Below, one piece after another: positions 14,402 through 30,757 of a stretch of 64,000 nucleotides of DNA. Source of the stretch: Gammaproteobacteria bacterium (GTDB lineage Bacteria > Pseudomonadota > Gammaproteobacteria > Burkholderiales > SHXO01). The first letter of the stretch is position 1, and each line of letters starts with the position of its first letter. The stretch is from contig JBGPOV010000006.1 of the NCBI GenBank assembly GCA_041488255.1, positions 14,096 through 78,095 on the forward strand, written 5' to 3'. The notes beneath the pieces are model-generated. The model was not told the DNA's origin. It saw only the letters and a list, made by a program, of their open reading frames with translations, and did no database searches. A program made the translations under genes and the position numbers.

Positions 14402-17400
14402 ATGAGACTCCTAAGCCTGTTAAGCCCGTTTTCACGCACGTCTGGCGAGCGCTCGCTGGGCGCGTGGTTCCGGCGGCGCAGGCAAGCCAGTGCTGGGGTC
14501 GGCAAAAAGCTGCTCAAGGTTGCGCTCTGGGCGCTCGGCCTGATTGTGTTGTTCGCTCTGGTCGGGTTCTTCGCGGTGCCGCCCATCGCCAAGCACTACC
14601 TGGTCAAGAACCTGTCCGAGCTGCTGGGCCGGCAGGTCGCGATTCAAGAGATCAAGATCAACCCCTTCGCCCTGAGCGCGGCGGTGCGTGGTGTCTCGAT
14701 TAAGGAGCCCGCCAGCCCCGAGGTGTTTGTGTCCTTCCAGGAACTGTTCGTCGATCTGCAGGCCGAATCCCTCATCCGGCGCGGACCGATCCTGAGGGAG
14801 ATCCGGCTCGATCGCCCGTATGTTCACATCGTCCGCCGCGACGACGGCAGCTACAACTTCTCCGATCTGGTGGCGAAGTTCACCAGCGGCAGCGGGCCCG
14901 AGAAACCGGGTGCAGCCACAGGGGCGGCCAAGAAAGCCCAGCAACAGCCTCGCTTCTCGCTCAACAACATCCAGGTGCTCGCGGGCAAGGTGGTGTTCGA
15001 CGACCGGCCCAAGAAGGCCGAGCACGCGGTGACAGAGATCAATATCGCCATCCCCTTTCTCTCCAACTTGCCCTACCTGGCGGACAGCTACGTCCAGCCG
15101 TCGTTCTCGGCCAAGGTCAACGATACGCCGATCGCGCTGACCGGCCGCAGCAAGCCGTTCGCCACCCCTCCGGAGGCGCAGCTCGATCTGGACATCTACT
15201 CGCTCGATATCCCGCGCTATCTCGAGTATCTGCCGGTCAAGCTTCCGTTCAAGATCGCATCGGCGCTGCTCGAGACGCGGCTTACTGCCAGTTTCACGCT
15301 CTATCCGGACAAGCCTCCGCTGTTGGAGCTCTCCGGCAAGGCGGCGCTGGACAAGTTCGCGATGACTCAGCTCGACGGGCGCGCGTTGCTCAGCTTCGCC
15401 CGGCTCGAGGTCCCGGTGCAGTCGGCCGCCGTGTTCGCGCGCGACGTCAAGCTTGGAAATGTCGTTCTGCGCAGCCCCGAGGTGTTCGTCCGGCGCGAAC
15501 ACGACGGGACCCTTAACTGGGTGAGTGTCGTCCCGAAGCGGGAGCAGGCGGGGACCGGCTCGCAGCCGCCGCAAGAACAAGAAGCAGCGCGCGACGAAAC
15601 CGATCAGCCGATGAAGCTCCGCGTCGAGGAGGTCAGGGTCGAGAACGGTCAGATTCATTTCGCCGACGACGCCGCGCCCAAGCTGTTCAAGACCGACATC
15701 GCGGACCTGCTGGTCGTTTTCCGGAAGTTCGCGCTGCCGCAGGTCGACCCGGCCACGCTGGAGGTTTCATTCGGTACAAAGTTCGGAGAGAGCTTCAAGC
15801 ACACGAGCATGCTGTTCGCTTCGCCGCTCAATATCGACGGGAGCCTCGAAGTGAGCGGCGTGAAGCCCAAGAACTACTCGCCTTACTACGCGCCTCTGGT
15901 CCGCTTCGACGTCGAGGAAGGCACGCTGGACCTGTCCACCCGGTTTCGCGCGGCGCAGACTGGCAAAACGGTCAACGCGACGATATCCGGGCTGCAAGCC
16001 TCGCTGAGCAAGCTGCGCCTGCGCAAGCGTGGCGCAAAGGAGGATTTTCTATCTGTGCCCGCCGTCGACCTGAAGGGCGTGGACATGGACGCGGTGAAGC
16101 ACACGGTCGAGGTAGGCGAGCTTTCGAGCAAGCAAGCGAAGGTGCGTCTGGTACGCGACAAGGACGGCACGATCGATCTCACTCGGCTCACCGCGCAGGA
16201 CGAGAGCGCCACGGCGCCCGCGCCGCCGCCGACGGCGAAGCAATCAGCCGAAACGTGGCAGTGGCTGGTAAAGAAGATCGCTCTCGACCGCTACGCGGTG
16301 AGCTTCGAGGACCAGGTGCTGGCGCAGCCGGTCACTCAAGTGGTGGAGCCGATCAAGCTCAGCGTGGACAACCTGTCCAACCGCCCCGGCTCAAAGGCCA
16401 ACGTCGCCCTAGCCATGGGCGTCAACAAGACCGGCAAGGTGCTGGCGTCCGGACTGGCCGGAATCAACCCGCGGGGAGCGGATCTAAACGTCGACGTGCA
16501 GAGCATAGACCTGGTTCCACTGCAACCCTACCTCGAGGAGAAGCTCAACATCCTGATCACCAGCGGCGAGGTCATGGTGCGCGGAAGGTGGCAGCTTACG
16601 GCGCCAGAACCGGGCCCCCGGACCGTCGTCTTCAAGGGCGATGCGGGGATCAACAACTTCGCCTCCGTAGACAAGGCCACATCCCAGGATTTCCTCAAGT
16701 GGAAGTCGCTCTTCGTCGGTGGAATCGACACCACCTACCGCGCCTTCGCAGTTGGGAAGGCGATCTTCGCTCGCGAATCCGATACGGCTGCGCCCGAGGC
16801 CCCCTTCAGACTGCAGATTCAGGAGGTGGCGCTGTCCGACTTCTACTCGCGCCTGATCATTTATCCGACCGGCAGGCTGAACGTGCAGAACATCCTGGCC
16901 AGCGGCGGCACCGCGCAGTCGGCGGACGAGACAGCCACCGCCCAGGCCGAGGCCCGTGCGGCGGACCAAGCTCCGCCTCCGGCCAAGAGCGACAAGCCGG
17001 CCAAGCCGCCAGGTAAAGGCGACAAGCCAGTCAAGCCCCCGGCCGCAGAGGCCGAGGGCGCACCGGCTGTGCCGCCGCCGTCCATCGCTATCGCCAAAGT
17101 CACGCTCCAGGGCGGCAACGTGAACTTCACCGACCTGTTCGTCAAGCCGAACTACTCGGCCAACCTGACCGAGATCGGCGGTTCTGTGACGGGGCTGTCG
17201 TCGCAGTTGAACACCACCGCCGATGTGGACCTGCGCGGCCGTTTCGCTAAGACTGCGCCAGTCGAGATCAAAGGCAAGATCAATCCGCTGCTGCAGAACC
17301 CATTCCTCGACATCAAAGCCAACGTGCGCGACATCGAGCTCGGGCCCTTGACCCCCTATTCCGGGAAATACGTGGGCTATGCCATCGAGAAGGGCAAGAT

Positions 17401-18274
17401 GTCGTTCGACGTCGCCTACAAGATCGAAAACCGCAAGCTCGCGGCCAGCAACCGCCTCACGCTCGACCAGCTCACCTTCGGCGAGAAGGTCGACAGCCCC
17501 ACGGCGACCAAGCTGCCGGTGCTGTTCGCGGTGGCGCTGCTCAAAGATCGAAACGGTGTGATCGACGTAAACATGCCCATCAGCGGGTCGGTGGACGATC
17601 CCAAGTTCAGCGTCGGCGGCATCGTGCTGCATATCATCTTCAACTTGATCGAGAAGGCGATCACCGCGCCTTTCGACTTGATCGGCTCGCTGGTTGGAGG
17701 AAGCGGCGCGGAGCTCTCGTACGTGGCATTCGAGCCAGGCCAGGCGGCGATAACTCCGGCTGCCGGAGATAAGCTCACCAAGCTCCAGAAGGCGCTTTTC
17801 GAGCGTCCGGCGCTTAAACTCGACGCGAGCGGTCGCAGCGACCCGGACAAGGATCGCGAAGGGCTGCGCCGGCATCGCTTCGACCAGCAGATGAAGGCGC
17901 AGAAACTCAAGGACCTGGTGAAGAAGGGCTCGTCGGCGGCCTCGGTGGACGAGGTTAAGATCGAGCCCCAAGAGTACGAGACCTACCTGAAGCGCGCCTA
18001 CAAGGAAGCGAAGTTTCCGAAGCCGCGCAACCTGATCGGTATCCAGAAGGACCTGCCGAACGAGGAAATGGAAAAACTCATGCTGACCAACACCGCGGTC
18101 ACCGACGATGATCTCATCCAGCTTGCCAACCAGCGCGCGCAGGCCACCAAGAACTTCATCACCCGTGGGGACCAAGTGCCGGTGGACCGCGTGTTCCTCC
18201 TGGCGCCCAAGCTGGAGGCCGCCAAGGGGGAGGACAAGCTCCCCGGTAGCCGCGTCGACTTTTCGCTCAAGTGA
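14402..18274 (+). CDS. DUF748 domain / AsmA-TamB-like giant envelope protein
   Basis: 1290 aa with an N-terminal anchor KLLKVALWALGLIVLFALVGFFAVPPIAKHYL and repeated beta-rich DUF748-type segments (IQEIKINPFALSAAVRGVSIKEP; NIQVLAGKVVFDD). An internal Pro/Lys-rich linker is present, and the C-terminal region carries VDVNMPISGSVDDPKFSVGGIV. Confidence 0.8.
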   Translation: MRLLSLLSPFSRTSGERSLGAWFRRRRQASAGVGKKLLKVALWALGLIVLFALVGFFAVPPIAKHYLVKNLSELLGRQVAIQEIKINPFALSAAVRGVSIKEPASPEVFVSFQELFVDLQAESLIRRGPILREIRLDRPYVHIVRRDDGSYNFSDLVAKFTSGSGPEKPGAATGAAKKAQQQPRFSLNNIQVLAGKVVFDDRPKKAEHAVTEINIAIPFLSNLPYLADSYVQPSFSAKVNDTPIALTGRSKPFATPPEAQLDLDIYSLDIPRYLEYLPVKLPFKIASALLETRLTASFTLYPDKPPLLELSGKAALDKFAMTQLDGRALLSFARLEVPVQSAAVFARDVKLGNVVLRSPEVFVRREHDGTLNWVSVVPKREQAGTGSQPPQEQEAARDETDQPMKLRVEEVRVENGQIHFADDAAPKLFKTDIADLLVVFRKFALPQVDPATLEVSFGTKFGESFKHTSMLFASPLNIDGSLEVSGVKPKNYSPYYAPLVRFDVEEGTLDLSTRFRAAQTGKTVNATISGLQASLSKLRLRKRGAKEDFLSVPAVDLKGVDMDAVKHTVEVGELSSKQAKVRLVRDKDGTIDLTRLTAQDESATAPAPPPTAKQSAETWQWLVKKIALDRYAVSFEDQVLAQPVTQVVEPIKLSVDNLSNRPGSKANVALAMGVNKTGKVLASGLAGINPRGADLNVDVQSIDLVPLQPYLEEKLNILITSGEVMVRGRWQLTAPEPGPRTVVFKGDAGINNFASVDKATSQDFLKWKSLFVGGIDTTYRAFAVGKAIFARESDTAAPEAPFRLQIQEVALSDFYSRLIIYPTGRLNVQNILASGGTAQSADETATAQAEARAADQAPPPAKSDKPAKPPGKGDKPVKPPAAEAEGAPAVPPPSIAIAKVTLQGGNVNFTDLFVKPNYSANLTEIGGSVTGLSSQLNTTADVDLRGRFAKTAPVEIKGKINPLLQNPFLDIKANVRDIELGPLTPYSGKYVGYAIEKGKMSFDVAYKIENRKLAASNRLTLDQLTFGEKVDSPTATKLPVLFAVALLKDRNGVIDVNMPISGSVDDPKFSVGGIVLHIIFNLIEKAITAPFDLIGSLVGGSGAELSYVAFEPGQAAITPAAGDKLTKLQKALFERPALKLDASGRSDPDKDREGLRRHRFDQQMKAQKLKDLVKKGSSAASVDEVKIEPQEYETYLKRAYKEAKFPKPRNLIGIQKDLPNEEMEKLMLTNTAVTDDDLIQLANQRAQATKNFITRGDQVPVDRVFLLAPKLEAAKGEDKLPGSRVDFSLK

Positions 18275-18285
18275 GGTAAGCCGAA

Positions 18286-18579
18286 ATGAAACAGACCATC
18301 GCATTTCTGATCACCAGCCTGGCGCTGGCAGCCCATGCGGCGGACCAGAAGAAGCCCGAGCCGGCGCCGGCGCCGGCCACAAAGGACAACTTCTTCGAGC
18401 GCGCCGCTAAGGCAATCGGGAAAGACGCCAAGAGCGCGGTGCACCAGGCCGGTGAGGCATACGGCAAAGCCGGCAAGGACATCGGGCACGGCGCCAGCAA
18501 GACGGTCAAAGACGTCGGGCACGCGATGAAGGAGAGTGCCGACAAGACCGGCAAGGAAGTCAAGGAGACGGTCAAGTAG
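18286..18579 (+). CDS. small secreted protein with five 11-residue Lys/Gly-rich repeats
   Basis: ATG lies 11 nt after the DUF748 stop, with a GAGG SD. Signal peptide MKQTIAFLITSLALAAHA/AD. The 11-mers are AAKAIGKDAKS, AVHQAGEAYGK, AGKDIGHGASK, TVKDVGHAMKE and SADKTGKEVKE. Confidence 0.6.
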   Translation: MKQTIAFLITSLALAAHAADQKKPEPAPAPATKDNFFERAAKAIGKDAKSAVHQAGEAYGKAGKDIGHGASKTVKDVGHAMKESADKTGKEVKETVK

Positions 18580-18864
18580 CTCGTGGGGCCACCTCTCTGT
18601 CCTCTGGGGGCTAGCTCGGCAACACAGGGTCCGAGCAGCGCGCGGCAGCGATGCTCCGATCAAGCGGTCACCGAGTCAGTTACGGTGGAGTTTGCCTCCC
18701 CTAAACGTGTCGGTAGGATGCGACGACTGGACTCTCTCCATGGGCCGGCCGTCACAGGTGCTCGACGAGCGCGTTCACCCCCCCTGTCGCCGTTCGCCCA
18801 GGGCTGCATGACAGCCGGAAAGAATGGGCGCAAGATATCGGAGATTTTGCGGGGGACGCCGCGT

Positions 18865-19902
18865 ATGAGAGTTCTGCTGGCCACGCATGCGGGTCTGTTT
18901 GCGGACGCGTTTAGCGGATCGCTGACCAAGCTCGCGAGCCGGGTCCAAGTGGAACGCTGCGACCCGGAGCGCGTGGAGGAGCCCGACCCCGAGGCGGGCT
19001 TCGCTCTGGTGCTCATCGACGCCGACGCGGCCCCGGGCCGCGCTGCCAGCCTGGTGCGCAGCTGCCGCGACCGCCTCCCCGGGGTGCCGGTGGTAGCGCT
19101 CGCCAGCGGTCTAGACGAGAGCGTTATAGCCGGGATCATGAACGCCGGCGCCCAGGCCTACCTTCCCAAGAGCTACCGCGAGGCGCAGGCGCTTGGGGTT
19201 CTACAGATGGTGCTCGGCGGCGCGAGCCATCGACCGCATGCTGACCGCGGCCACCTCGCAGCAGATGGTCGGACGCCCGCATTCGTGGCGGACGAGGGCA
19301 CGAGCCGCCGGCTTGGCCCGAATCCGTACAGCCTTACCGAGCGGGAACTGCAGGTGCTCACCCAGGTGTGCGAGGGGCGGTCCAACCTAAACGTCGCCAA
19401 GCGCCTGGGCATCACGGAAGGAACGGTCAAGATCCACCTCAGCAACTCCTATAAGAAACTGGGGGTGGAAAACCGCACGCAGGCCATCCGCATCGTCGAG
19501 CGTCTGGACCATGTGCAGAACATGGCGCTGGAGGAGGCCGAGCAAGGTCTGTCGCTGCGCGACTGGCTGCTGCCCCACATGTCGGACGAGTCCCATCACA
19601 AGGGGGAGATCCTGTTTCGAAAAGGAGATCCGGCACGCGCGCTGTACTACATCCAGCAGGGCAAGGTTGCACTGCCGGAGATCGGTAAGCAGATGGCCGA
19701 GGGGGCGTTGTTCGGGGAGATCGGCATCTTCGCGCCCGAGCATTCCCGCACCTGCACAGCGCGCTGTGAGACCGACGCCCGCCTCTTCTGCCTGACCGCG
19801 GAGCGGGCGAAACGCCTGTACTTCGAAAACCCTCAGTTCGCCTATCACGTGATGCAACTGATCGCGCGACATCTGCTCGAAGATCAGTCCCGCCGGCACT
19901 GA
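18865..19902 (+). CDS. transcriptional regulator: atypical receiver + LuxR/GerE HTH + C-terminal cyclic-nucleotide-binding domain
   Basis: In-frame ATG at 18865 gives 345 aa. The REC-like region is MRVLLATHAG...VLIDADA...VVALAS...YLPK; the acidic pair is replaced by THA. LuxR HTH: LTERELQVLTQVCEGRSNLNVAKRLGITEGTVKIHLSNSYKKLGV. cNMP domain: GEILFRKGD...LFGEIGIF...SRTCTARCETDARLF. Confidence 0.8.
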   Translation: MRVLLATHAGLFADAFSGSLTKLASRVQVERCDPERVEEPDPEAGFALVLIDADAAPGRAASLVRSCRDRLPGVPVVALASGLDESVIAGIMNAGAQAYLPKSYREAQALGVLQMVLGGASHRPHADRGHLAADGRTPAFVADEGTSRRLGPNPYSLTERELQVLTQVCEGRSNLNVAKRLGITEGTVKIHLSNSYKKLGVENRTQAIRIVERLDHVQNMALEEAEQGLSLRDWLLPHMSDESHHKGEILFRKGDPARALYYIQQGKVALPEIGKQMAEGALFGEIGIFAPEHSRTCTARCETDARLFCLTAERAKRLYFENPQFAYHVMQLIARHLLEDQSRRH

Positions 19903-19938
19903 CGCGCCCCGACCGCGCGGCGCTCAGCCGCATCCGCC

Positions 19939-22317
19939 ATGAACCCGCGTGCCTTTCTAGGGGCGTCCTGGCTGGCCTGGCGGCATGCCCTCATCGCCGG
20001 TCTAGTGCTGGCGATCCTCGGCGCCGGGCTAACCATGACGCCCGCGCTTTGGCCGCTGCAGGAGAGTTTCGACCTGTGGCTCCTGTTCAAGCTGCGCGGC
20101 CCCAAGGCCCCCCCTGATGACATCGTGCTGGTGACCATCGACCAGCAGTCGTCCGAACGCATCACGCTGCCCATCGACCCCGAGGCGCGCAACCGCTGCC
20201 TCGATCTCAGGGTCGGAGATGCGCCTGCCTCGCACGAACGGCTGCCTCCGCCGCACCTGGTGATGCGCTGGCCCCGCTGTGTGCACGCACTGGCCGTCCA
20301 GGCGCTGGCTGCGGCCGGGGCGCGCGTCATTGCACTGGACATCTCTTTCCGGCCTCTGGTGCCGGGCGGTTCGGAGAAGGGTCTGCGGCTGAGTGAAGAC
20401 CAGGACCGCGCCTTGGCCGATGCGATCGAATCGGCCGGCAACGTGCTGATCGCGCAATGGCTCGATCCCGTCCGGATGAAGCGGGAGCCCATAGCGGGAG
20501 ACGCACGCGCCGAGCCGGCTGAACGGCCGGCCGCGGTGAGCCCGCTGATCGAGTCCGCCGCCCTGGGCACCGCGCCCTTGCGTTTGGCGTATGGGCAGGC
20601 GGGCCGGGTCAATGGGTTCGCCGCCTTCAGCCAGGAAGACGGGCCGATGTCGAGCATGCCGGCCCTGCTGCTCCAACGCTCCGTCGCGGAGGTGCACTCG
20701 GACCTCGTGCGCCTGATAGCCCAGGCCAGTCCTGAAGACGCCGAGCTGCTGCCGCGCACGCCGGAAGCGCTCGACCAGCGCCGGCCTTTGCAGGCCACTT
20801 CGCTGCTGTTGCGGCATCTGGTTCGATCGCAGCCGAGCCTGGCGGACGCTTTGCACGATTCCCTGGAAGGCCGCGACGGCGCGGGACTGCCTGCCCGGCG
20901 CCGCGCCGCCCTGCGGGCGCTGGTGGATCTGTATGCCGGCGACGCAGTTCGTTATCTGAACTTCTACGGCCAACCCGGGACGTTCCCTAGCGTGAGCTAC
21001 GCGGACGTCCTGAAGCTCGCATCGCGCAGCGGCGCACAACTTTCTCAGGAGCTGCGCGGCAAAACCGTGATCGTCGGTTACGTGGACTTCACCCCCGCAC
21101 AACGCGACGACCACTACCCGAGCGTCTACACCACCAGCGACGGGGTCAAGCTCAGCGGCAGCGAGATCCTGGCAACAGCGGTCGCCAACCTTGCGTCGGG
21201 CACCAGCGTGAAGCTCTTACCGCTTGCCTCGCGAACGCTGGTAGCCGTCGGTTTCGGCCTGGCGCTGGCTTTGTTGCTCCTGGTCCCGCCTCCTCTGCGC
21301 GGTCTTATCACCGGGTTCGCGCTGTGCGCTGCCTACCTCGGGCTCGCGCTGCTGCGGTTCCGGCTCGCATCGTTATGGCTACCGGTGCTCGTTCCGGTCA
21401 CGATCCAGGCACCGGCCGGCATCTTGTATGCGGCGGCCTATCACTACCGCGAGATGCGGCGCAAGCGCGATGAGCTGCGCAGGCTGTTCGGCAAGTTCGT
21501 TCCGGACCTGGTGATCGAAGGACTGCTGGAGAACCGAGCCCGGCTGGACACAGTGAACGAGCCGGTTTACGGGGTGTGCCTGGCCACCGACGCGGAGCGC
21601 TTTACAGCGCTGGCCGAAGGCATGCATCCGTCGCAGCTGGCGCGGTTTCTGAACCGTTACTTCGAGGCCGTGTTCCCGCCCATCACCGAAAAGGAAGGGG
21701 CGGTGGTCGACTTGATCGGCGATGCGGTCCTGGCGTTGTGGAGCGGACGGGAGGCCGACCGCAGCCTACATGTGAAGGCGTGCGAGGCGGCGCTCGAGCT
21801 GATGTCGGCGGTCGACCGGTTCAACGCGGCTTCGCCTACGCTCCGGCTCCCGACCCGCATCGGGATCTCGGGTGGCGAAGTCGCAACGAGCCCGATGGGC
21901 GCGGTCAACCACTTCGAGTTCCGCCCGGTGGGGGACGCCGTGGTGACTTCGGTTCGCCTGCAGGAGCTAAACAAGCTATTGGGCACGCGCATCCTGGCAT
22001 CGGAGCCGATGATCCGCGGGCTCGACGCGCTGCTGGTGCGAGACTTGGGGGTGTTTCAGCTGAGGGGCAAGAGCCTGCCCACCCACGTTTTCGAGATCGC
22101 AGGCGAGCGCGAGAGCGCCAGCGCCTATGTTATGCAGCTGTGCCTGGAGTTCGCGCTGGCCTTGGACGCGCTGCGTGGGGGCCGGCACGAAGCCGCCCTG
22201 GAGCGCTTCAGGGCGACTCACGACCGCTATCCTCAAGACGGGCCCACCGCTTTCTACGTGCACTGGCTGTCCTCCCACCCGCTGTGGGGCGGCGGCGCGA
22301 TCCGACAGTCCCCCTGA
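19939..22317 (+). CDS. CHASE2 sensor domain-containing class III nucleotidyl cyclase
   Basis: 792 aa. N-terminal TM, then a CHASE2-type periplasmic region (LLFKLRGPKAPPDDIVLVTIDQQS...VIALDISF...NFYG...VIVGY). Three TM helices follow (aa ~430-510). The cyclase homology domain reads VCLATDAERFTALAE...VVDLIGDAVLALW...RIGISGGEV...GDAVVTSVRLQE. Confidence 0.85.
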   Translation: MNPRAFLGASWLAWRHALIAGLVLAILGAGLTMTPALWPLQESFDLWLLFKLRGPKAPPDDIVLVTIDQQSSERITLPIDPEARNRCLDLRVGDAPASHERLPPPHLVMRWPRCVHALAVQALAAAGARVIALDISFRPLVPGGSEKGLRLSEDQDRALADAIESAGNVLIAQWLDPVRMKREPIAGDARAEPAERPAAVSPLIESAALGTAPLRLAYGQAGRVNGFAAFSQEDGPMSSMPALLLQRSVAEVHSDLVRLIAQASPEDAELLPRTPEALDQRRPLQATSLLLRHLVRSQPSLADALHDSLEGRDGAGLPARRRAALRALVDLYAGDAVRYLNFYGQPGTFPSVSYADVLKLASRSGAQLSQELRGKTVIVGYVDFTPAQRDDHYPSVYTTSDGVKLSGSEILATAVANLASGTSVKLLPLASRTLVAVGFGLALALLLLVPPPLRGLITGFALCAAYLGLALLRFRLASLWLPVLVPVTIQAPAGILYAAAYHYREMRRKRDELRRLFGKFVPDLVIEGLLENRARLDTVNEPVYGVCLATDAERFTALAEGMHPSQLARFLNRYFEAVFPPITEKEGAVVDLIGDAVLALWSGREADRSLHVKACEAALELMSAVDRFNAASPTLRLPTRIGISGGEVATSPMGAVNHFEFRPVGDAVVTSVRLQELNKLLGTRILASEPMIRGLDALLVRDLGVFQLRGKSLPTHVFEIAGERESASAYVMQLCLEFALALDALRGGRHEAALERFRATHDRYPQDGPTAFYVHWLSSHPLWGGGAIRQSP

Positions 22318-22340
22318 CACTGCCCTGTGGACCGCTCCGG

Positions 22341-22391
22341 TATGACGAAGCCCGCGGATTGCATACCTATGACGAAAGTTAGCTTGCATAC
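22341..22391. repeat. two tandem copies of TATGACGAA-N(8-10)-TTGCATAC in an AT-rich spacer
   Basis: Copies at 22341-22366 and 22368-22391. The second TTGCAT could act as a -35 (17 nt to TTAGAT), about 90 nt upstream of the ATG at 22483. Confidence 0.55.
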
Positions 22392-22482
22392 AAGAAAAAA
22401 AGGGGTTTAGATGGGATTTGCTTTCGGTCGTGATGCTTAGCCTTTAACGGGCCGGTAAGGCTCGGCGGGGAGGGGGTTAAGG

Positions 22483-25400
22483 ATGTTGCGGTCGGGCGTC
22501 TCGAGCGCTTCGGCCTTGGCGCTGGGGTGCGTTGTCCCAGCGCTCGTGGTGGTGTGCGCAACGCCCACGCGCGCGACGGCTGCCGACGCGCCTCCCACAT
22601 GCACGCCCGTGGTGGCGCGGATCGTCTCCATGCAAGGCATCGTCGAAGTGCGCCGCTCCGGGCAGCAGAACTGGTCTGCGGTCACCCGTTTGGATACGCC
22701 CGTGTGCCAGGGGGACCTGCTGCACGCCGGACCGCGCAGCCGTGCCGCGCTGGTCATTCTTCCCGAGAAGTTCGTCCGGCTCGACCAGAACTCCACGGTG
22801 AGCATCAGCATTGCGGGCGAGGAGACCATCGTCGAGTTCTTCCAGGACGAGACCACGCCCAAGGACGCCTGCGGTGCGGGCTATTTCATCACCCGCTTCC
22901 CGCGCAAGTTCAAGGTCCGCACGCCGTTCGTGAATGCGGCAGTGGAAGGCACCGAGTTCCTCGTCAGCATGAGCTGCACCGCGACGTCGCTGGCGGTGTT
23001 CGAAGGCAAGGTCAGCGCCGAGACGCTGCTCGCCAATGTGCAGCGCTTCATCCTCAGCAGCGGCGAAGCCATCTCCGCTGGCCCCGGCGAGCCGCCAGCG
23101 ATCAAGGTGCTGATCAAGCCGGTCGATGCGGTGCAGTGGGCGCTGTACTACCCCCCGCTGAGCGAACCCGGGCCAGGAGTGGGGCCGGATCAGCAGTGCG
23201 ACCAGCCCGCGCCAGACGAGAGTAGCCGCTGCCTCATAGTGCGCGCCGAGCAACGCTTGCGCGTCGGACGGGTGGACGAAGCCGAGGCCGACATCGACGT
23301 GTCGCTTAAGTTGATTCACGACAACAGCGATGCGGAGGCCCTACTCTCGGTCATCAGCGTGGTCAAGAATGACAAGCAAAGGGCTTTGGCATTGGCCCAG
23401 CACGCCACCCAACTCGGCCCGGTAAATCCGCGCGCCTGGATCGCGCTGTCCTACACGCAGCAGGCAAGTTTCAAGTTGGAGGATGCCCTTACCAGCGCCG
23501 AGCGCGCCGCCGAGCTAGAGCCACGCAGTTCCATCGCGCTAGCGCGCGTGGCCGAGCTCATGCTGTCGCTTGGCAAGGTCCGCTCCGCCGAGCGCGCTGC
23601 CCAGGCGGCCGTGGACGCCAACGCTGATGACAGTCGGGCGCATACGATCCTGGGCTTTGTGCACTTGGCGGCGATCGACATCAAGAAAGCCAAGGCCGAC
23701 TTCGAGGCGGCCATCGCGCGCGATTCGAGCGATCCTCTTCCCCGCTTGGGGCTGGGGCTGGCCATTATCCGCAAGGGCAACCTAACGGCGGGCCGCGAGC
23801 AAATCGAGATCGCCGTCGCCCTGGACCCGACAAACTCGCTGCTCCGCAGCTATATGGGCAAGGCCTACTACGAGGAGGACACCAAGGCGCGCGACCGGCT
23901 CGCCTCCACGCAGTTCGGCTTAGCCAAGCAGCTCGATCCTAAGGACCCTACGCCCTGGTTCTACGACGCGATCTTAAAGCAGACGCAGAACCGCTCCGTC
24001 GAGGCCCTCGAAGAGTTCCAGAAGTCCATCGAGCTCAACGACAACAGAGCGGTGTACAGATCGAAACTGCTGGTGGATGAAGATCGCGCGACGCGCGAGA
24101 CGAACTTGGCGCAGATCTACCAGGACCTCGGCTTCAATCAACCGGCCCAGATCGAGGCGTCGAAATCTGTCTCGTTTGATCCCTCCAATTACTCTGCGCA
24201 CAGATTTCTGTCCGAAGCCTCCAGCCCCGTCGAGCGGCAGGAAATCACTCGTGTGAGCGAACTTCTAAAAGCCCAGCTGCTGCAGCCCTTGAACCTGAAT
24301 CCTCCTCAACCCCAGGCCGCTTTCGCGCAGCTCGGAATCCTTCCCAGCGCGACTCAATTTGCGCCCGGTTACAACGAGTTCAGCCCCCTATTCGAAAGCA
24401 ACGGTTTGCATCTGTTCGCGACCGCCCTCGCAGGCAACGAAGAAACCCTTGGCGATGAGGTCGTGGTGTCAGGTTTGGTCGACCGACTCTCCCTGAGCCT
24501 GGGACAGTTCCACTACCAGACTCAGGGTTTTCGACCGAATAACGACCTTACGAACAACATATATGACGCTTTCGCCCAGATCGCCCTCACACCCAGCATC
24601 AACCTCCAAGCAGAGTACAGGACTCGTGATGCGGAGGCCGGCGACAGAAGCCTGACCGGCGATCCGACCATATCCGACCCGGGATTCCGGCGGAACTTGC
24701 AGCACGACGTCGCTCGGCTAGGTGCGCGCGTCGACCTCAGCGAGCGGTCTACAGTCCTATTCTCGGGAATTCACGCCAAGAGAGAGGAGAGTCTGTTCTT
24801 TCCCGATTTCTTTGGCATGCAGCTCACCAGCAGCGGGACAACCGAGACGGACCAGGGCGAAGCGCAGTGGATCTACAAGGGCTTCGGGGGCTCACTGGTC
24901 ACGGGCCTGGGAGCGTACGACGGCAACGCGCAACAGCAGGACCAGTTTTCTCCGGGCCCCTGCCCGTTCCCGCCATGCGAGCTAACCTTCGGCACAAGGG
25001 GACAGAACGCGTACCTCTTGTGGAGCTTCCAGCCCGCGCCCGCTATGTTGTTGGTATTGGGAGGCTCTTACGATCACGTCAACGAAGCGAACCTGGACGT
25101 TGAGAAACTCAGCCCGATGGCGGGCTTCTATGTCCGTCCACTCAGCTGGCTGTCTTTTCGCATGGCTGCTTTCCAGTCCGTGAAACCGGCGCTGGTTGCC
25201 GACCAGACGATCAGGCCAACACAGATCCTGGGGTTCAGCCTGTATTCCGATGATTTCAACGGAACGGTGGCAAACGGCTTTGCCATCGCTGGAGATGCGC
25301 GCCTTGGCTCTGACGCGCTGGCGGGCGTCGAGGCCTCCCGGCGTTCACTGTCCATCCCTCTGGATGCAGTTGGCTCCCCATTCTTCCTGAATTCGACAGA

Positions 25401-25848
25401 GAGCGCCTTGGGCGCGTATCTCGCATGGACGCCGCGGCGTGACGTTGCAGTCTCGCTCAGATGGCTCCGAGAGAATTCGACCCGGCCGGCAGCGGATGTG
25501 GCCGACGTGGGACTGCCCTCGCAAGTGACCAATGATTTGTTTCCCCTGAGCGTGCGTTTTTTCACCGCTGGCGGTTTCATTGCAGGCGCCACGGCAACGT
25601 ATGTCAAGCAATACGTGGCGAGCACATCTTTCCCTCCAACCAATCAGGCGAACAGCGACTTTTCTTTGGTCGACCTCTTTCTCGGCTATCGATTGCCGGA
25701 GCGTCGTGGCCTGATATCCCTAACTGTCAACAACCTCTTTGATAAGGAGTTCTCTTTCTATGATTTGAATTTTCTGACAACGGAACCGTTGAATCCGCGC
25801 TTTACCCCCGCGAGGACCTTCTTCGGGCGAATCGCGCTGTACTTCTGA
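22483..25848 (+). CDS. FecR domain + TPR repeats + C-terminal outer-membrane beta-barrel fusion protein
   Basis: 1121 aa.
- Signal peptide: ...VVVCATPTRATA/AD.
- FecR-like region: IVSMQGIVEVRRSGQQNWSAV...GDLLHAGPRSRAALVI...VRTPFVNAAVEGTEFLV.
- TPR region, aa ~250-560: AWIALSYTQQASFKLEDALTSAERAAELEP..., LGLGLAIIRKGNLTAGREQIEIAVALDP.
- Beta-rich C-terminal ~550 aa ending GRIALYF (terminal Phe, an OMP signature). Confidence 0.75.
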   Translation: MLRSGVSSASALALGCVVPALVVVCATPTRATAADAPPTCTPVVARIVSMQGIVEVRRSGQQNWSAVTRLDTPVCQGDLLHAGPRSRAALVILPEKFVRLDQNSTVSISIAGEETIVEFFQDETTPKDACGAGYFITRFPRKFKVRTPFVNAAVEGTEFLVSMSCTATSLAVFEGKVSAETLLANVQRFILSSGEAISAGPGEPPAIKVLIKPVDAVQWALYYPPLSEPGPGVGPDQQCDQPAPDESSRCLIVRAEQRLRVGRVDEAEADIDVSLKLIHDNSDAEALLSVISVVKNDKQRALALAQHATQLGPVNPRAWIALSYTQQASFKLEDALTSAERAAELEPRSSIALARVAELMLSLGKVRSAERAAQAAVDANADDSRAHTILGFVHLAAIDIKKAKADFEAAIARDSSDPLPRLGLGLAIIRKGNLTAGREQIEIAVALDPTNSLLRSYMGKAYYEEDTKARDRLASTQFGLAKQLDPKDPTPWFYDAILKQTQNRSVEALEEFQKSIELNDNRAVYRSKLLVDEDRATRETNLAQIYQDLGFNQPAQIEASKSVSFDPSNYSAHRFLSEASSPVERQEITRVSELLKAQLLQPLNLNPPQPQAAFAQLGILPSATQFAPGYNEFSPLFESNGLHLFATALAGNEETLGDEVVVSGLVDRLSLSLGQFHYQTQGFRPNNDLTNNIYDAFAQIALTPSINLQAEYRTRDAEAGDRSLTGDPTISDPGFRRNLQHDVARLGARVDLSERSTVLFSGIHAKREESLFFPDFFGMQLTSSGTTETDQGEAQWIYKGFGGSLVTGLGAYDGNAQQQDQFSPGPCPFPPCELTFGTRGQNAYLLWSFQPAPAMLLVLGGSYDHVNEANLDVEKLSPMAGFYVRPLSWLSFRMAAFQSVKPALVADQTIRPTQILGFSLYSDDFNGTVANGFAIAGDARLGSDALAGVEASRRSLSIPLDAVGSPFFLNSTESALGAYLAWTPRRDVAVSLRWLRENSTRPAADVADVGLPSQVTNDLFPLSVRFFTAGGFIAGATATYVKQYVASTSFPPTNQANSDFSLVDLFLGYRLPERRGLISLTVNNLFDKEFSFYDLNFLTTEPLNPRFTPARTFFGRIALYF

Positions 25849-25886
25849 AGACGTTCATCAACCACACCAGCAACAGGAGAGCAACC

Positions 25887-26198
25887 ATGGTATCACTACC
25901 CGGCGATATGTCACCAATCAATAAGGACGTCATCGACTACCTTCAGGTCTTATTCGATAGCAACGGTGGAACTAACCCCTCGAACGTGCGCACGATAGTG
26001 TTCTTCTTCGACGATAAGGATCCCCAATGCTATCACCGACCGGGGATGCCAACCGCGAAAAAAATCCCAGGCGGAAACATCAATGAGCAGGCAAAACAGG
26101 TTTCCCGACTAGACGAGGTGACGGTTGTGGTATTCCAGAAAAACCCCACGTGCTTTTGGAAGGTGATTAACGGGTCACATCGTCTCTACTGTGGCTAG
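25887..26198 (+). CDS. hypothetical small protein (103 aa, 3 Cys, no signal peptide)
   Basis: ATG lies 7 nt after AGGAGA and 38 nt after the barrel-protein stop. Composition is normal for a protein. The C-terminus is NPTCFWKVINGSHRLYCG. G+C is lower than the flanks. I recognise no family. Confidence 0.5.
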   Translation: MVSLPGDMSPINKDVIDYLQVLFDSNGGTNPSNVRTIVFFFDDKDPQCYHRPGMPTAKKIPGGNINEQAKQVSRLDEVTVVVFQKNPTCFWKVINGSHRLYCG

Positions 26199-26221
26199 CT
26201 AGGATCTCGGCTACTTTAGGT

Positions 26222-26277
26222 GAGCGCTGACCAATTTCACCCCTCTCGAGCCTGCAGACGCAGTGAGGTCAGCGCTC
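26222..26277. repeat. 11-bp perfect inverted repeat GAGCGCTGACC-N34-GGTCAGCGCTC
   Basis: Read directly in the 164-nt spacer between the 103-aa ORF and the DyP gene. Confidence 0.6.
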
Positions 26278-26362
26278 GATGCGTACTCAGCAAGAGCTAC
26301 CCCAAGGTGACCACACGCAGTCCGACGCTTGGGCCGTGTCGCAAAGCGGCCAAGGAGGAAAC

Positions 26363-27820
26363 ATGGCTGGTATACTAGACACCCCCCTCGATCTCGACAA
26401 ACTTTCTCCTGCTCAGTGGGCATTGCTCGAAGACCTTCAAGGCAACATTCTCAAAGGCCACGGGAGAGATCACGCGGCCCATATTTTCCTGCACTTTGAC
26501 AGTGCGGATGGCGCGAAGGAGTGCCTGAAGCGGTTGCGAGGGCTGATCACTTCTGCAGGCGACCAGGTTCGTGTCTGGCAACGACTGCGCTCATCAAAAG
26601 CAGCAACACAAGCGGACCCTGGCTTACACACCATCTCCGGACAACTGTTCTTGAGCCTCGCCCTGTCCTGCAAGGGCTACGAAAAGCTTGGGATTAACCC
26701 GGATTCGATTCCCCAGGATCCGGCGTTCAAAGCTGGCATGCGGGGCCGACCCAGCTTACAGGATCCCCCCCCAGAACAGTGGACCATGCTAAAAAAAGAC
26801 GGCGGCAAAGCGCTTGAGGAGATCCACGCCCTGGTAATTGTGTCTTGCGACACACCTGAGGTCACTAAGCTCTACAAAGACATGATCGTGCGGCGATCGG
26901 CTCCGCACGCACGAGAGTTGGGCACAGAAACTGGAAGAGCGCTTCGAAACGCGGCGAGGCAACGGATCGAGCACTTTGGTTACGTGGATGGCATGAGCTC
27001 GCCAGTGTTCGTGCTCCAAGATCTGGAGGGGAGTCAAAACACCTGGAATCCGCTCTCACCTCCAAGCGTGGTTTTGGAAAGATGTCACGGCGGGGACGAG
27101 AACAGCTTCGGGAGTTACTTGGTGTTCCGTAAGCTGGAGCAGAATCCGCGCATGTTTGCCGGGCTGGAGATCGCCCTTGGCAAAGCGGCGGGAAAGACCT
27201 CCGATGAGGCTGGTGCTATGGTGATTGGCCGGAAGAAGGATGGTACGTCCTTGACGCTCTCCTCCGCGACGCCGTCAAATCCCCCCTCGAACGACTTCGA
27301 TTATCGTAACGACACTCATGGGAACGTATGTCCCTTCAATGCTCACGCGAGAAAACTGAACCCTCGGGGAGCGACGATTCCCAGCGATCCCCAACAAGGG
27401 GTGGGCGGGGAACGTCAGCATTGGATTGTCCGTCGTGGGATCCCATACGGCGCTCGCAAGGATGACCCCACCAAGCCTGCATCACCTGAATCACTCAGAG
27501 AACGGCCGGAGTGGGGGCAGGTGGGCCTTCTTTTCATGTGCTATCAGCGGAGCATCGAAACCCAATTCGAGGAACTTCAAAGCCACTGGGCGAACGATGC
27601 CTGGTTCCCGCTCGAACCAACCGAGAAGCTCAAGGGTGTCGATCCGCTGATTGGATCGCGAGACACGCGTGAGATGGAGAACGGGAAGCCCTTACTACAG
27701 CAGCCCTTGTGGCCATCCAGGTCGGGAAACATGGTACCGTTTGAGATTCCTCAATGCGTCAGGCTGCAGGGAGGAGAGTATTTTTTCGTTCCCAGCATTT
27801 CGTTCATCCGAAAACTCTAG
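26363..27820 (+). CDS. DyP-type (dye-decolorizing) heme peroxidase, long form
   Basis: ATG at 26363 follows AAGGAGGAAAC and gives 485 aa. DyP hallmarks: LQGNILKGHGR, GxxDG motif FGYVDGMSSP, proximal-His region CPFNAHARKLNPR, RRGIPYG, GLLFMCYQRSIETQFEELQ, and a C-terminal GGEYFFVPS. No Tat or Sec signal. Confidence 0.8.
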   Translation: MAGILDTPLDLDKLSPAQWALLEDLQGNILKGHGRDHAAHIFLHFDSADGAKECLKRLRGLITSAGDQVRVWQRLRSSKAATQADPGLHTISGQLFLSLALSCKGYEKLGINPDSIPQDPAFKAGMRGRPSLQDPPPEQWTMLKKDGGKALEEIHALVIVSCDTPEVTKLYKDMIVRRSAPHARELGTETGRALRNAARQRIEHFGYVDGMSSPVFVLQDLEGSQNTWNPLSPPSVVLERCHGGDENSFGSYLVFRKLEQNPRMFAGLEIALGKAAGKTSDEAGAMVIGRKKDGTSLTLSSATPSNPPSNDFDYRNDTHGNVCPFNAHARKLNPRGATIPSDPQQGVGGERQHWIVRRGIPYGARKDDPTKPASPESLRERPEWGQVGLLFMCYQRSIETQFEELQSHWANDAWFPLEPTEKLKGVDPLIGSRDTREMENGKPLLQQPLWPSRSGNMVPFEIPQCVRLQGGEYFFVPSISFIRKL

Positions 27821-28102
27821 TCTTTGAGCCACCGCTTAACGGTGAGACGATCCGTGCTTAGCTAGAGTGCAGAGCAGCCTCGGGCTAGCGCGTGCGTTGC
27901 GCTGGGCTCGATGCACCCATTCATGCGCGAACAGCTGCCCAAGGCGCGGGTCCCCGGAGGATGCTCGCAGGATGGGCCACAGAATTGCAGGCCCTGACGC
28001 ACACCGAAGAGTTATTCGGCGATGCACACAGCATCGGCCAGCTTTCGTAGCGGGCAGGGTCGTGGGTCGCATCGCCTCGGCTCCTGGGAAGCCGCTCCAG
28101 CC

Positions 28103-29356
28103 CTATGCCCGACGCGCGACGAGCACAGCGTTGGAGCCACCGAACGCAAAGGAGTTGGAAAGCGCGTACTCTAGCTGCGGCGCTTGCCGTCCCGCGCACG
28201 GCACGCAATCGAGGTCGCACTCGGGGTCCAGCATGGTCAGATGCGCGGTGGGCGGCAGGCGCCGCTTTTTCAGCGCCAGCACTGTGATCGCGAATTCGAG
28301 CGCTCCGGCCGCGCCGACCAAGTGTCCATGCATCGATTTCGTCCCGCTCACCGCCAGACGGCGAGCGTGGCCGCCGAACGTCTGCTTGATCGCATCGATC
28401 TCGATCTTGTCCCCCGCGAGCGTGGCAGTGGCGTGCGCGTTGATATAGCCAACCGCTTCCGGCTGAAGCCCGGCGTCTGCGAGCGCCGCGCGCATGGCCC
28501 GCACCTGGCCGTCGACCGCCGGCTGCGTGAGGTTGTGCGCGTCGCTAGACGCACCGTACCCTACCACCTCGGCAAGGGGCTGCGCGCCGCGCGAGCGCAT
28601 CGCCTCCTGCGCCTCCATCACGATCGCCACCGAACCCTCCCCGAGCACGAAACCGGTGCGGTCTTTGCTGAACGGACGGCTGGATGCCGCCGCGCCGTCG
28701 GCATGTTCCTTCGCGAGCACGCCGAGTCCGTCCCAGGCCGTGATAGCTCCGTCGTTCAGCATCGACTCGGTACCGCCCGCCAGGGCGCAATCCAGGTAGC
28801 CATCGCGGATCGCGCGAAACGCTTCGCCGATTGCCACGCCGGACGATGAACAAGCGATCGAGTAGGTGATCGAGGGGCCGCGGATCCCATAGCGCATGGA
28901 GATGTGGCTAGCCGGCGCATTCGTCATGATGAGAGGAACAGTGGACGGCTTAGCCTTGCGGGATTGTCGCTGGTAGTAGAGACGGTAGGCCTCCTGGATC
29001 GCGCTCGAGCCCCCAAGTCCGCAGCCGATGTAGATGCCAGCGGCGGCCGGGCCCCGGTCCTCCACGAGCAGCTTCGCGCCCGCCAGCGCGCGATGGGCGG
29101 CGATGACCGCCATCTGCGAGACCCGGTCCATGACAAAGAGCTGGGCCTTGGGGATCACGCCGGACGGATCGCACTCGGCCTGCGCAAGTAGAACATCGGC
29201 CCCGAACTCCGCAGTCCCGCTGCGGACCTTGCGGATCGCAGACTCGCCGGCGTACAGCCGTTCGAACACGCCATCGGGGTCGCCGCCATGCGGCGAGACG
29301 AGCCCGAGGCCGGTGACGAATACGCGTCGGCGGGCCGCAGTGGCTGGTTCAGGCAC
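28103..29356 (-). CDS. beta-ketoacyl-ACP synthase (KAS I/II, FabF/FabB-like paralogue)
   Basis: VFVTGLGLVSPHG, active-site Cys in YSIACSSSGVAIGEA, INAHATATLAGD, GTKSMHGHLVGAAGALE, NSFAFGGSNAVLV. The start is uncertain. GTG at 29356 overlaps the ACP stop (GTGCCTGA) and the track start is GTG at 29398. Confidence 0.9.
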   Translation of the reverse strand: MPEPATAARRRVFVTGLGLVSPHGGDPDGVFERLYAGESAIRKVRSGTAEFGADVLLAQAECDPSGVIPKAQLFVMDRVSQMAVIAAHRALAGAKLLVEDRGPAAAGIYIGCGLGGSSAIQEAYRLYYQRQSRKAKPSTVPLIMTNAPASHISMRYGIRGPSITYSIACSSSGVAIGEAFRAIRDGYLDCALAGGTESMLNDGAITAWDGLGVLAKEHADGAAASSRPFSKDRTGFVLGEGSVAIVMEAQEAMRSRGAQPLAEVVGYGASSDAHNLTQPAVDGQVRAMRAALADAGLQPEAVGYINAHATATLAGDKIEIDAIKQTFGGHARRLAVSGTKSMHGHLVGAAGALEFAITVLALKKRRLPPTAHLTMLDPECDLDCVPCAGRQAPQLEYALSNSFAFGGSNAVLVARRA

Positions 29357-29588
29357 CTTTGGTTTGGATGAGTTCGTCGACCAGTGCCGCCCCGTCACCC
29401 AGCGTAGTGAAGTTCGCGCGCTCGTCCGGGATGTCGATTCCGTACTTGTCCGCGACGTCGAACATCAGCTCGGCGGCCGATAGGGAATCGAGCCCGAGCT
29501 CAGCAAGCGTCGCCTCTGGCCGGATCGTGTCCGGCTTGACGTCGTGCCTCTCAATGAGCACTTGCTTGATGTAATCGTACGAACTCAT
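29349..29588 (-). CDS. acyl carrier protein (phosphopantetheine-binding), dedicated
   Basis: MSSYDYIKQVLIERHDVKPDTIRPEATLAELGLDSLSAAELMFDVADKYGIDIP contains the DSL serine motif. An alternative ATG lies 9 nt upstream at 29597. Confidence 0.85.
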   Translation of the reverse strand: MSSYDYIKQVLIERHDVKPDTIRPEATLAELGLDSLSAAELMFDVADKYGIDIPDERANFTTLGDGAALVDELIQTKGA

Positions 29589-29759
29589 GGTGCGCATCCA
29601 TTGGTGGGTTGCGGCTCGGAAAGTGGAAATATACCATGGCGATCGTGCGCTGGCGCCCGGCACCCGGTCCGGGTGCCGGTGTCGGCCCGGCGGGCGTCCC
29701 GGGATGCCGGTCGAGCTGGCCGCCCACCTTCAAATACCTCTGATCGGCCGGCCCGTCCA

Positions 29760-30596: not shown

Positions 30597-30757
30597 AGCA
30601 TCATTGCGACGCCACGAACGTCGAGCGTCGGTTCGCATCCAGTGGCGAGACTCAGACCATCCATAGGAATCTCGACATCGCTTGGTTGTGGGAAAGCAAC
30701 GCGTCGCGCGCCACCACCACTGCGCCCCGCAATGCGGTCTCGGCCGGACAGCGGTCT

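Follow-up and report, generated by a model that had tools for sequence, protein, structure and literature searches.

Do five neighboring genes in a 64,000-nt stretch of contig JBGPOV010000006.1 (assembly GCA_041488255.1; the whole stretch is referred to as the window) encode a signaling pathway that leads from the outer membrane to transcription, and has such a pathway been described before? The genes, here called g1 to g5, are all located on the + strand between positions 18865 and 27820, separated in turn by 36, 165, 38 and 164 nt. They encode a cyclic nucleotide monophosphate (cNMP)-binding regulator (g1), a CHASE2 receptor with a class III nucleotidyl cyclase domain (g2), a FecR and TPR domain-containing outer-membrane barrel protein (g3), a small protein (g4) and a DyP-type peroxidase (g5). 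The initial annotation gave these genes and spacers exactly, and its domain assignments (FecR, TPR, CHASE2, class III cyclase, LuxR, cNMP and DyP) were upheld by Pfam and NCBIfam searches. Its central proposal, an undescribed envelope-to-transcription cyclic nucleotide module, holds in one half only: the three-tier wiring is backed by synteny and by homology to NsrA of S. meliloti, but the NsrA-CyaK/CyaD1/CyaD2-Clr pathway has been published and the clustering of such genes has been noted in Campylobacterota. We consider it probable that the five genes form an NsrA-type cell-surface signaling cassette, in which information passes from the outer membrane via the CHASE2 cyclase to the cNMP-binding regulator.

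The g3 product contains a FecR domain (Pfam, 3e-8) and matches several TPR models. An AlphaFold2 model built from 116 homologues (predicted local distance difference test (pLDDT) 89.2, predicted template modeling score (pTM) 0.87) begins with a signal peptide at residues 1-33, followed by a FecR beta-sandwich (43-210), a solenoid of TPR repeats (244 to ~600) and a 22-strand barrel (641-1120, pLDDT >90) with a C-terminal Phe. The best Foldseek matches of the model in the PDB are the TonB-dependent transporters PqqU, FptA and FecA (E 1e-13 to 1e-16), and BtuB-BtuG is also among the fold matches. Pfam identified no Plug or STN domain and no TonB box was found, the N-terminus being occupied by the FecR and TPR regions in both the Pfam matches and the model. 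The model thus predicts a secreted outer-membrane protein, in which a plug-less, TonB-transporter-like barrel carries a TPR solenoid and a FecR fold on the side facing the periplasm, in agreement with the initial reading of a barrel with periplasmic FecR and TPR domains. The barrel itself would belong to the FecA fold class. Like Fec-type signaling, g3 combines a FecA-like 22-strand barrel with a FecR-fold periplasmic domain and would connect the outer membrane with transcription. The wiring differs from the Fec paradigm, as had been pointed out, since the FecR fold is part of the barrel protein and does not reside in the inner membrane, where the partner would be a cyclase. Moreover, g3 is devoid of a plug, an N-terminal signaling domain and a TonB box, and the output would be a nucleotide rather than sigma-factor release. 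Neither an inner-membrane FecR anti-sigma factor nor its extracytoplasmic function (ECF) sigma factor was identified among g1-g5 or the flanking genes scanned.

In S. meliloti, NsrA and the cyclases CyaK, CyaD1 and CyaD2 are genetically required for signal-dependent, Clr-mediated cyclic AMP (cAMP) responses (PMC7529298, PMC13001267); the NsrA system is the subject of Garnerone et al. 2018 J Bacteriol 200:e00019-18 (cited in PMC13001267) and Sorroche et al. 2020 (PMC7529298). The nsrA gene is located on pSymB immediately 5' of cyaK and encodes a 1190-aa "FecR domain-containing protein" with FecR and TPR regions and a faint barrel signal. A tblastn search of plasmids with g3 (E 1e-5) returned nothing despite the location of nsrA on pSymB, and BLASTP of g3 against NsrA gave weak colinear matches only. 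NsrA was located via cyaK, and its homology to g3 became visible only by profile comparison: hhalign aligned the profile of g3 homologues with NsrA at a probability of 99.6% (E 7.7e-24, 954 columns, 22% identity), which makes g3 a distant full-length homologue of NsrA. Both proteins contain a signal peptide, FecR, TPR repeats and a C-terminal barrel, the gene of each neighbors one for a CHASE2 class III cyclase, and in both systems the output is read, or would be read, by a cNMP-binding transcription factor. Of the features of an NsrA-type receptor, g3 thereby shows secreted FecR and TPR domains, a C-terminal barrel, full-length homology and a neighboring CHASE2 cyclase. The two systems differ in that the proteins share only ~22% identity, the gene order is reversed with nsrA 5' of cyaK, Clr is an unlinked, Crp-type factor whereas g1 is a linked fusion of a putative pseudo-receiver with LuxR and cNMP-binding domains, and on pSymB, nsrA is not followed by a gene for a small Cys-hairpin partner or an enzyme.

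Homologues of g3 are numerous. More than 4000 clusters with like architecture were obtained by protein search, and at least 561 relatives were confirmed in a scan of species-representative genomes, with hosts including metagenome-assembled Burkholderiales, many Nitrosomonas and Nitrosospira, Chromatiaceae, Methylococcales, Nitrospirota and Desulfobacterota. A metagenome scan with the g3 barrel yielded only relatives of 30-39% identity.

Gene neighborhoods were compared across the best 77 loci of g3 relatives, 64 of which had enough upstream sequence. A CHASE2 cyclase is encoded immediately 5' on the same strand in 46 of these 64 loci and anywhere in the locus in 54, an arrangement far beyond chance, and labelled neighborhoods show this order too. 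A cNMP-binding regulator is located nearby in 30/77 loci; in 22 it is a Crp-type factor ~0.5 kb downstream, and in eight, all from Burkholderiales-type genomes, it is of the g1 type and lies upstream. The neighborhood expected at the outset is thus confirmed for g2-g3-g4, which are syntenic, but the linkage of g1 is clade-specific. Some of the loci lacking a directly upstream cyclase are second tandem copies in the order cyclase, barrel 1, small protein 1, barrel 2, small protein 2, and the remaining exceptions found are pairs of barrel and small protein with no cyclase within the fetched flanks. Tandem pairs behind a single CHASE2 cyclase occur in loci L034, L040, L056, L009, L079 and L042, and the two pairs in each locus differ in small-protein type. 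In the distant locus L003 (4530-7420), an ECF sigma factor gene and the gene for a Ser/Thr kinase-TPR protein are oriented divergently, 5' of a trio of CHASE2 cyclase, barrel and small protein. A second copy in the assembly that contains locus L087 (L085, 2305-11020), with FecR/TPR regions 84-90% identical to those of the window, encodes its own small protein, has no adjacent cyclase and is preceded by two phage-type integrase genes.

This synteny bears on the view that the five genes are mere neighbors without a functional link, or that the cyclase and cNMP domains represent a Pycsar-like anti-phage system. PADLOC did return matches to PycC (3.8e-12 for g2) and to cNMP-containing effectors, but these are weak and generic and reflect the common class III cyclase and cNMP folds. 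The pairing of a pyrimidine cyclase with a cNMP-activated killing effector was not found here, no TIR or membrane-disrupting effector is encoded and the cNMP domain shares its polypeptide with a DNA-binding domain, making either version of this view extremely improbable.

The tendency of FecR and CHASE2 genes to be neighbors, mentioned in the initial annotation, is borne out by the literature (PMC5192318, PMC9239204). In Campylobacterota, a CHASE2 adenylate cyclase clusters with a phosphodiesterase, a FecR-domain protein of the outer membrane and a TPR protein, for which one common pathway was proposed (PMC9239204). The combination of a CHASE2 cyclase with a FecR-domain outer-membrane protein and TPR repeats is shared with the window; by its description, however, the Campylobacterota cluster contains a separate TPR gene and a phosphodiesterase, whereas here FecR, TPR and barrel form one polypeptide and no phosphodiesterase is encoded in the cluster. 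The BiofilmReg operon of Burkholderia encodes a response regulator, a LysM-FecR periplasmic protein, a CHASE2 histidine kinase and a DUF4136 protein (PMC5192318). There too, a FecR-domain envelope protein is encoded beside a CHASE2 sensor, but the FecR partner is soluble or peptidoglycan-binding and has no barrel, and CHASE2 feeds into a histidine kinase that works with a true response regulator.

The g2 product contains CHASE2 (7e-25) and Guanylate_cyc (2.9e-8) domains, the catalytic domain spanning approximately residues 545-725, within a predicted cytosolic part of about residues 500-792, and the periplasmic CHASE2 domain about residues 29-440. It shares 28% identity with S. meliloti CyaK (E 9e-20) and is thus a CyaK-like partner of the NsrA-like g3. 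Its best PDB match is 2w01, the guanylate cyclase Cya2 of Synechocystis, in which Glu occupies the Lys position. Both metal-binding Asp residues (TDAERFT, IGDAVLA) and the catalytic Arg are kept, but the pair that specifies adenine is missing, with Asp at the Lys position and Arg at the Asp/Thr position. The same holds for all 54 barrel-linked cyclases (54/54), in which the first specificity position is Asp or Glu, rarely Asn or Gln and never Lys, and the second is nearly always Arg. CyaK, by contrast, has the specificity pair Lys and Ser and is canonical throughout (Lys/Ser, Asn, Arg), compared with Asp/Arg, Val and Arg in g2. An acidic residue and Arg at these positions would suit guanine. 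The transition-state Asn is present in almost all other family members; only the window, L008 and L061 have Val instead, and L073 has Ser. This Asn-to-Val replacement may reduce the activity of g2.

The g2 catalytic domain has its best local matches in cyclases of Azospirillum, but these were set aside as members of another subfamily, with canonical Lys/Thr/Asn/Arg residues and a ShlB-type barrel as neighbor. On plasmid pAB510c of Azospirillum sp. B510 (locus L098, 5906-10495), such a canonical CHASE2 cyclase gene is followed by one for a ShlB/FhaC-type POTRA barrel. The outer-membrane barrels with which CHASE2 sensors pair are therefore of more than one class. In Rhodospirillum centenum, gcyB and gcyC, described as "non-catalytic guanylyl cyclase subunits", share an operon with the cyclic GMP (cGMP) receptor gene cgrA (PMC4681086); these subunits may be related to g2.

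The replaced Asn raises the question of whether the window copy is decaying or non-catalytic, a pseudo-enzyme cyclase in a cassette that is heading for loss. The restriction of Val to the window, L008 and L061, together with the weak Pfam cyclase score, would fit such a state, as would a sister locus from which g2-g5 have been deleted. This locus (L097, 10001-11180) consists of AsmA, a 93-aa gene, g1 and a ketoacyl synthase gene on the - strand; its g1 is 96% identical to that of the window, g2-g5 are missing, and the junction ~25 nt past the g1 stop marks a clean ~8.1-kb indel relative to window positions 19903-28103. Nevertheless, all five reading frames in the window are intact and full length, both metal-binding Asp residues and the Arg are retained, and the non-coding blocks are conserved. 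Furthermore, g2 is 81% identical to its orthologue in L006 without frameshifts and the Val variant occurs in several lineages, which points to purifying selection. Decay of the window copy is accordingly regarded as quite improbable.

The g1 product consists of a receiver-like domain (residues 1-125), a LuxR/GerE helix-turn-helix (156-210; GerE, 2.9e-18) and a cNMP-binding domain (243-321; cNMP_binding, 3.8e-15). The receiver-like domain has no Response_reg match in Pfam. In a family alignment, it keeps the phospho-acceptor Asp and the Lys, but its Asp-Asp pocket is Thr-His and variable across the family, and the conserved Thr is replaced by Ala, with both pocket and Thr lost throughout the family; by these residues we classify it as a putative pseudo-receiver. 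The loss of the acidic pocket fits the absence of a kinase for this domain, which had been noticed from the beginning. Compared with NarL/FixJ response regulators, a GerE domain is present but in the middle of the protein rather than at the C-terminus, and compared with CRP/FNR regulators, the domains follow the opposite order and the helix-turn-helix is of the LuxR type, while the Gly-Glu ... Arg-Thr cassette is intact. The combination of GerE and cNMP domains is rare (~115 clusters in 5.8e9 proteins), and the fusion of a pseudo-receiver with LuxR and cNMP domains would represent a new architecture of cyclic nucleotide-dependent transcription factors.

The phosphate-binding cassette of g1, FGEIGIF...RTC(T/S)A, is conserved in the family (RTCTA in the window) and retains Arg-Thr, which is the signature of PKG. 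Arg-Thr is likewise present in the cGMP-specific CgrA (PMC10187061). By analogy to these residues, and with Asp/Glu and Arg at the specificity positions of the cyclase, the circuit may use cGMP rather than cAMP.

Upstream and downstream halves of the cassette differ in conservation. The GC content falls from 0.65 to 0.57 across 24200-27900, and GC at third codon positions (GC3) is 0.81-0.84 in g1, g2 and the N-terminal part of g3 (0.84 in the latter), 0.72 in the barrel, 0.63 in both g4 and g5, and 0.81 in the ketoacyl synthase gene that follows. In the syntenic relative L006/L008, AsmA (81%), g1 (89%), g2 (81%) and residues 1-550 of g3 (84-98%) are highly similar to the window, whereas g3 from approximately residue 575 to its end (22-44%) and g4 (~20%) are not, and similarity returns in the ketoacyl synthase (89%) and lipid A acyltransferase (92%) genes. 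Identity to L006 thus collapses from about g3 residue 575 up to the ketoacyl synthase gene, between flanks of 81-92%. The position of g5 is occupied in L006/L008 by an animal heme peroxidase that is non-homologous to DyP, and in other close relatives by Peptidase_S8 (subtilase) genes or by a gene for a 707-aa unknown protein. Where the barrel resembles that of the window, so does the small protein: in L088/L089 the barrel is 66% identical and accompanied by a g4-like protein of 40% identity.

Across 2278 locus pairs, small proteins were homologous in 77-100% of the pairs with barrels at least 60% identical and in none with barrels below 50% identity. Among 39 pairs with at least 70% identity in the FecR/TPR region but less than 45% in the barrel, none (0) share the small-protein type. 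The small protein therefore co-varies with the barrel and not with FecR/TPR, and from the identity profile and the pairwise data it follows that barrel and small partner are exchanged and diversify jointly, while the transduction core behind them stays conserved. Barrel, small protein and neighboring enzyme behave as one swappable block.

The enzyme currently in this block, g5, contains DyP_N and Dyp_perox_C domains, scores 98.3 bits with TIGR01413, just below the cut-off of 100.5, and matches DyP2 (4g2c, 1.4e-73) and AnaPX (5c2i, 7e-70). Its GYVDG, AHARKLNPRG and VRRG segments align to GYVDG, AHIRKTNPRG and ARRG of DyP2, and the distal Asp, distal Arg and proximal His features of DyP enzymes are present. 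No signal peptide was identified in g5. The peroxidase is at most a possible output of the cassette: the slot varies in close relatives, and yet DyP recurs beside a g4-like gene elsewhere (L090, in which a DyP-like gene follows).

No Pfam or NCBIfam model matches g4 or the family to which it belongs. A word-indexed search with g4 retrieved g4 itself only, and a metagenome scan with g4 alone found no relative; eight true relatives of ~100 aa were nevertheless identified among 1.84e9 representatives, and a homologue is encoded at the matching position in L003 (E 3.6e-13). The 1531-aa repeat protein P0244, which matches g4 residues 17-52 five times via FDGQGGTNPSN...YFY, was rejected as a relative and probably reflects chance likeness of motifs. 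The C-terminal motif of g4, NPTCFWKVINGSHRLYCG, forms a Cys-x6-NG-x6-Cys hairpin, and C-termini of the same type in the family include GSTCITYVSNGTLITYCW and NPTCAIWVVNGQARQVCW. In 68 loci, an open reading frame (ORF) of 50-270 aa starts a few to ~200 nt, mostly 1-30 nt, past the stop of the barrel gene. The strict motif C-x4-9-[NDG]G-x4-9-C near the ORF end is found in 29/68 ORFs directly 3' of the barrel compared with 20/4788 other ORFs, several of these 20 being extra copies. N-termini of the small proteins are hypervariable, and some members contain lipoprotein or Sec signals while others, like g4, do not. The structure model of g4 (pLDDT 63.6) was too weak for a fold search. Its relatives, its fixed position 3' of the barrel and its co-variation with the latter are at odds with the first description of g4 as an orphan, and g4 is probably a conserved partner of the barrel and not a mere output. 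In ~22 Nitrosomonas-type loci, a conserved ~250-aa protein (MSVKSFISAEAHLAKLGY...) is encoded on the opposite strand just 3' of the small-protein gene (e.g., L040, 14126-14878, - strand).

A barrel that co-varies with a small, often lipidated partner could also belong to a secretion or surface-display module, in which barrel and TPR arm serve as translocon or assembly factor for the small protein and perhaps the enzyme, and the cyclase reports or regulates this traffic. Slam with its neighboring surface lipoproteins, SusC/SusD, and the export via Oar of the subtilase PopC, which PopD holds, would be comparable. SusC/SusD, BtuB/BtuG and Slam, which combines TPR and barrel and acts on lipoprotein substrates, serve to import or display cargo, with no coupling to a cyclase. 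As in these systems, a large barrel gene is followed by one for a specific, fast-evolving, often lipidated partner; in contrast to them, the partners here have no sequence homology to theirs and a cyclase is linked. The resemblance of the barrel to 22-strand transporters, the absence of a detectable plug domain, the many small partners with lipoprotein signals that co-vary with their barrels, and the secreted-type enzyme often encoded next (Peptidase_S8 with signal peptides) are all compatible with export, and TonB-transporter-dependent export of a protease has been published (PMC6434023). However, g4, DyP and the animal peroxidase lack signal peptides, Pfam and NCBIfam revealed no sequence homology to components of Slam, two-partner secretion or Oar systems, the tight and widespread linkage to cyclase and cNMP regulator would be unexpected for a pure export device, and the homologue NsrA functions in signal perception (PMC7529298). 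We therefore regard a primary role in secretion as unlikely.

Co-variation also invites a comparison with self-recognition. In the agr and com systems, variants of peptide and receptor define signaling types, and a hypervariable small protein, possibly matured by the enzyme, might similarly be released and sensed by its cognate barrel. The conservation of FecR/TPR, cyclase and regulator behind variable barrels and small proteins would be in line with this idea, as would the lack of a common small-protein type in the 39 pairs described above, the tandem pairs behind one cyclase, the nature of the variable enzymes, peroxidases or subtilases able to modify or cleave peptides, and the proteinaceous signal of NsrA (PMC7529298). 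Yet the cassette encodes no exporter, the enzyme slot is not conserved beyond the closest relatives, and partners of 70-270 aa, many with lipoprotein anchors, suit a structural role better than that of a diffusible signal, so that a pherotype-like system is considered decidedly unlikely. An equally doubtful elaboration would have each barrel variant recognize the small protein inherited with it, after release and perhaps modification by the enzyme, and report this protein as cGMP via the conserved FecR/TPR-CHASE2 relay. If true, this would constitute a pherotype or kin-recognition system that works through the Gram-negative outer membrane and is widespread among Burkholderiales and ammonia oxidizers.

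In the NsrA-type signaling cassette that we favor, a cue at or through the barrel would alter how the FecR/TPR arm contacts the CHASE2 domain in the periplasm, a step already proposed for NsrA and CyaK/CyaD. The g2 cyclase would then produce a cyclic purine nucleotide, maybe cGMP instead of cAMP, and g1 would bind this nucleotide and shift transcription, with likely targets including the conserved sites 5' of g1 and in the g2-g3 spacer. The small protein g4 could act as a barrel-specific accessory, such as a lid, plug, co-receptor or cognate ligand, and the joint exchange of barrel, g4 and enzyme (here DyP) between lineages would set the specificity of an otherwise conserved transduction core.

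Several observations weigh against this interpretation. The LuxR-cNMP regulator is tied to the cassette in one subclade only, and the sister locus L097 keeps g1 without g2-g5, so g1 need not depend on this cyclase. With Val in place of the transition-state Asn, cyclase output may be low or absent, and the Pfam cyclase score of g2 is weak (33.9 bits compared with 73.6 for CyaK). By residue analogy, cGMP is a possible nucleotide at most. Contact of g4 with a periplasmic or outer-membrane partner is unexplained, as no signal peptide was identified in g4, and promoter and terminator scans of the locus gave results at or below shuffle background. In addition, the source lineage belongs to uncultured Burkholderiales known from metagenome-assembled genomes only.

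New beyond the literature searched are the small-protein family, the replacement block of barrel, partner and enzyme, the non-canonical specificity residues and the LuxR-cNMP pseudo-receiver regulator. The ligands of CHASE2 domains are an open question, and NsrA is so far a single genetically defined example. As NsrA-like barrels form a large family with carriers including cultivable Nitrosomonas and Nitrosospira (the cassette occurs in Nitrosomonas aestuarii Nm36, N. marina Nm22 and Nitrosospira multiformis Nl12), the association of nearly all such barrels with a CHASE2 cyclase and a co-varying small partner provides a concrete specificity hypothesis in tractable organisms. Furthermore, the Asp/Glu and Arg pair of the cyclases and the Arg-Thr pocket of the regulator suggest a bacterial cGMP circuit, few of which are known.

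Table 1. Genes and sequence elements of the putative NsrA-type cassette (window positions)
Feature	Position	Strand	Description and basis
g1	18865-19902	+	345 aa; predicted pseudo-receiver–LuxR/GerE–cNMP-binding regulator (Pfam, NCBIfam, family alignment)
g2	19939-22317	+	792 aa; predicted inner-membrane CHASE2 receptor and class III nucleotidyl cyclase (Pfam)
g3	22483-25848	+	1121 aa; predicted FecR–TPR–outer-membrane barrel protein (Pfam, AlphaFold2)
g4	25887-26198	+	103 aa; predicted barrel-partner protein, C-terminal Cys hairpin motif
g5	26363-27820	+	485 aa; C/D-type DyP heme peroxidase (Pfam, NCBIfam)
g3, conserved N-terminal part	22483-24200	+	signal peptide, FecR, TPR (AlphaFold2, Pfam)
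g3, variable C-terminal part	24201-25848	+	last TPR helices and 22-strand barrel, ending ...RIALYF
Non-coding block GGGCTGCATGACAGCCGGAAAGAATGGGCGCAAGATATC 5' of g1	18801-18839	+	candidate promoter/operator; conserved in 5 loci
Non-coding block in g2-g3 spacer	22378-22482	+	candidate internal promoter/operator for g3-g4
Near-palindrome CTTGCATACAAG	22383-22394	+	inside g2-g3 spacer block
Inverted repeat GAGCGCTGACC, 34 nt, GGTCAGCGCTC	26222-26277	+	g4-g5 spacer; read from sequence
Replaceable low-GC block	24200-27900	.	barrel, small protein and enzyme (GC, GC3, identity to L006)
~8.1-kb segment g2-g5	19930-28040	.	missing from sister locus L097 (gene-order comparison)

The open frame of g1 extends 5' to a GTG at 18583; the start listed in Table 1 is backed by the alignment of homologues and by an invariant ATGAG behind the conserved non-coding block. 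The start of g4 is preceded by AGGAG 8 nt 5', and the ATG of g5 at 26363 has AAGGAGG in front, the solved DyP2 structure aligning from residue 17.

The 39-nt block upstream of g1 (18801-18839) is located ~25-60 nt 5' of the start and is conserved in five loci with otherwise diverged upstream DNA. The block at 22378-22482 makes up the 3' two-thirds of the g2-g3 spacer and aligns with strong conservation in the window, L008, L087 and L086, but this conservation does not extend to the spacer's 5' part. Within the block are CTTGCATACAAG, found once in the window, hexamers that resemble promoter elements, and a strong ribosome-binding site; a consensus promoter scan did not call this block. In the g4-g5 spacer, GAGCGCTGACC and GGTCAGCGCTC form an 11-nt perfect inverted repeat with a 34-nt loop and no T run behind it, and the spacer folds no better than shuffled sequences (z -0.1). 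Rfam returned no match.

The cassette is embedded in envelope-lipid genes on both sides (window 14402-18579 and 28103-33021), which encode a 1290-aa AsmA/DUF748 protein, a 97-aa secreted Lys/Ala-rich protein, ketoacyl synthase, lipid A acyltransferase, squalene/phytoene synthase and LytB. This gene context is also kept in L006 and at the P0005 locus.

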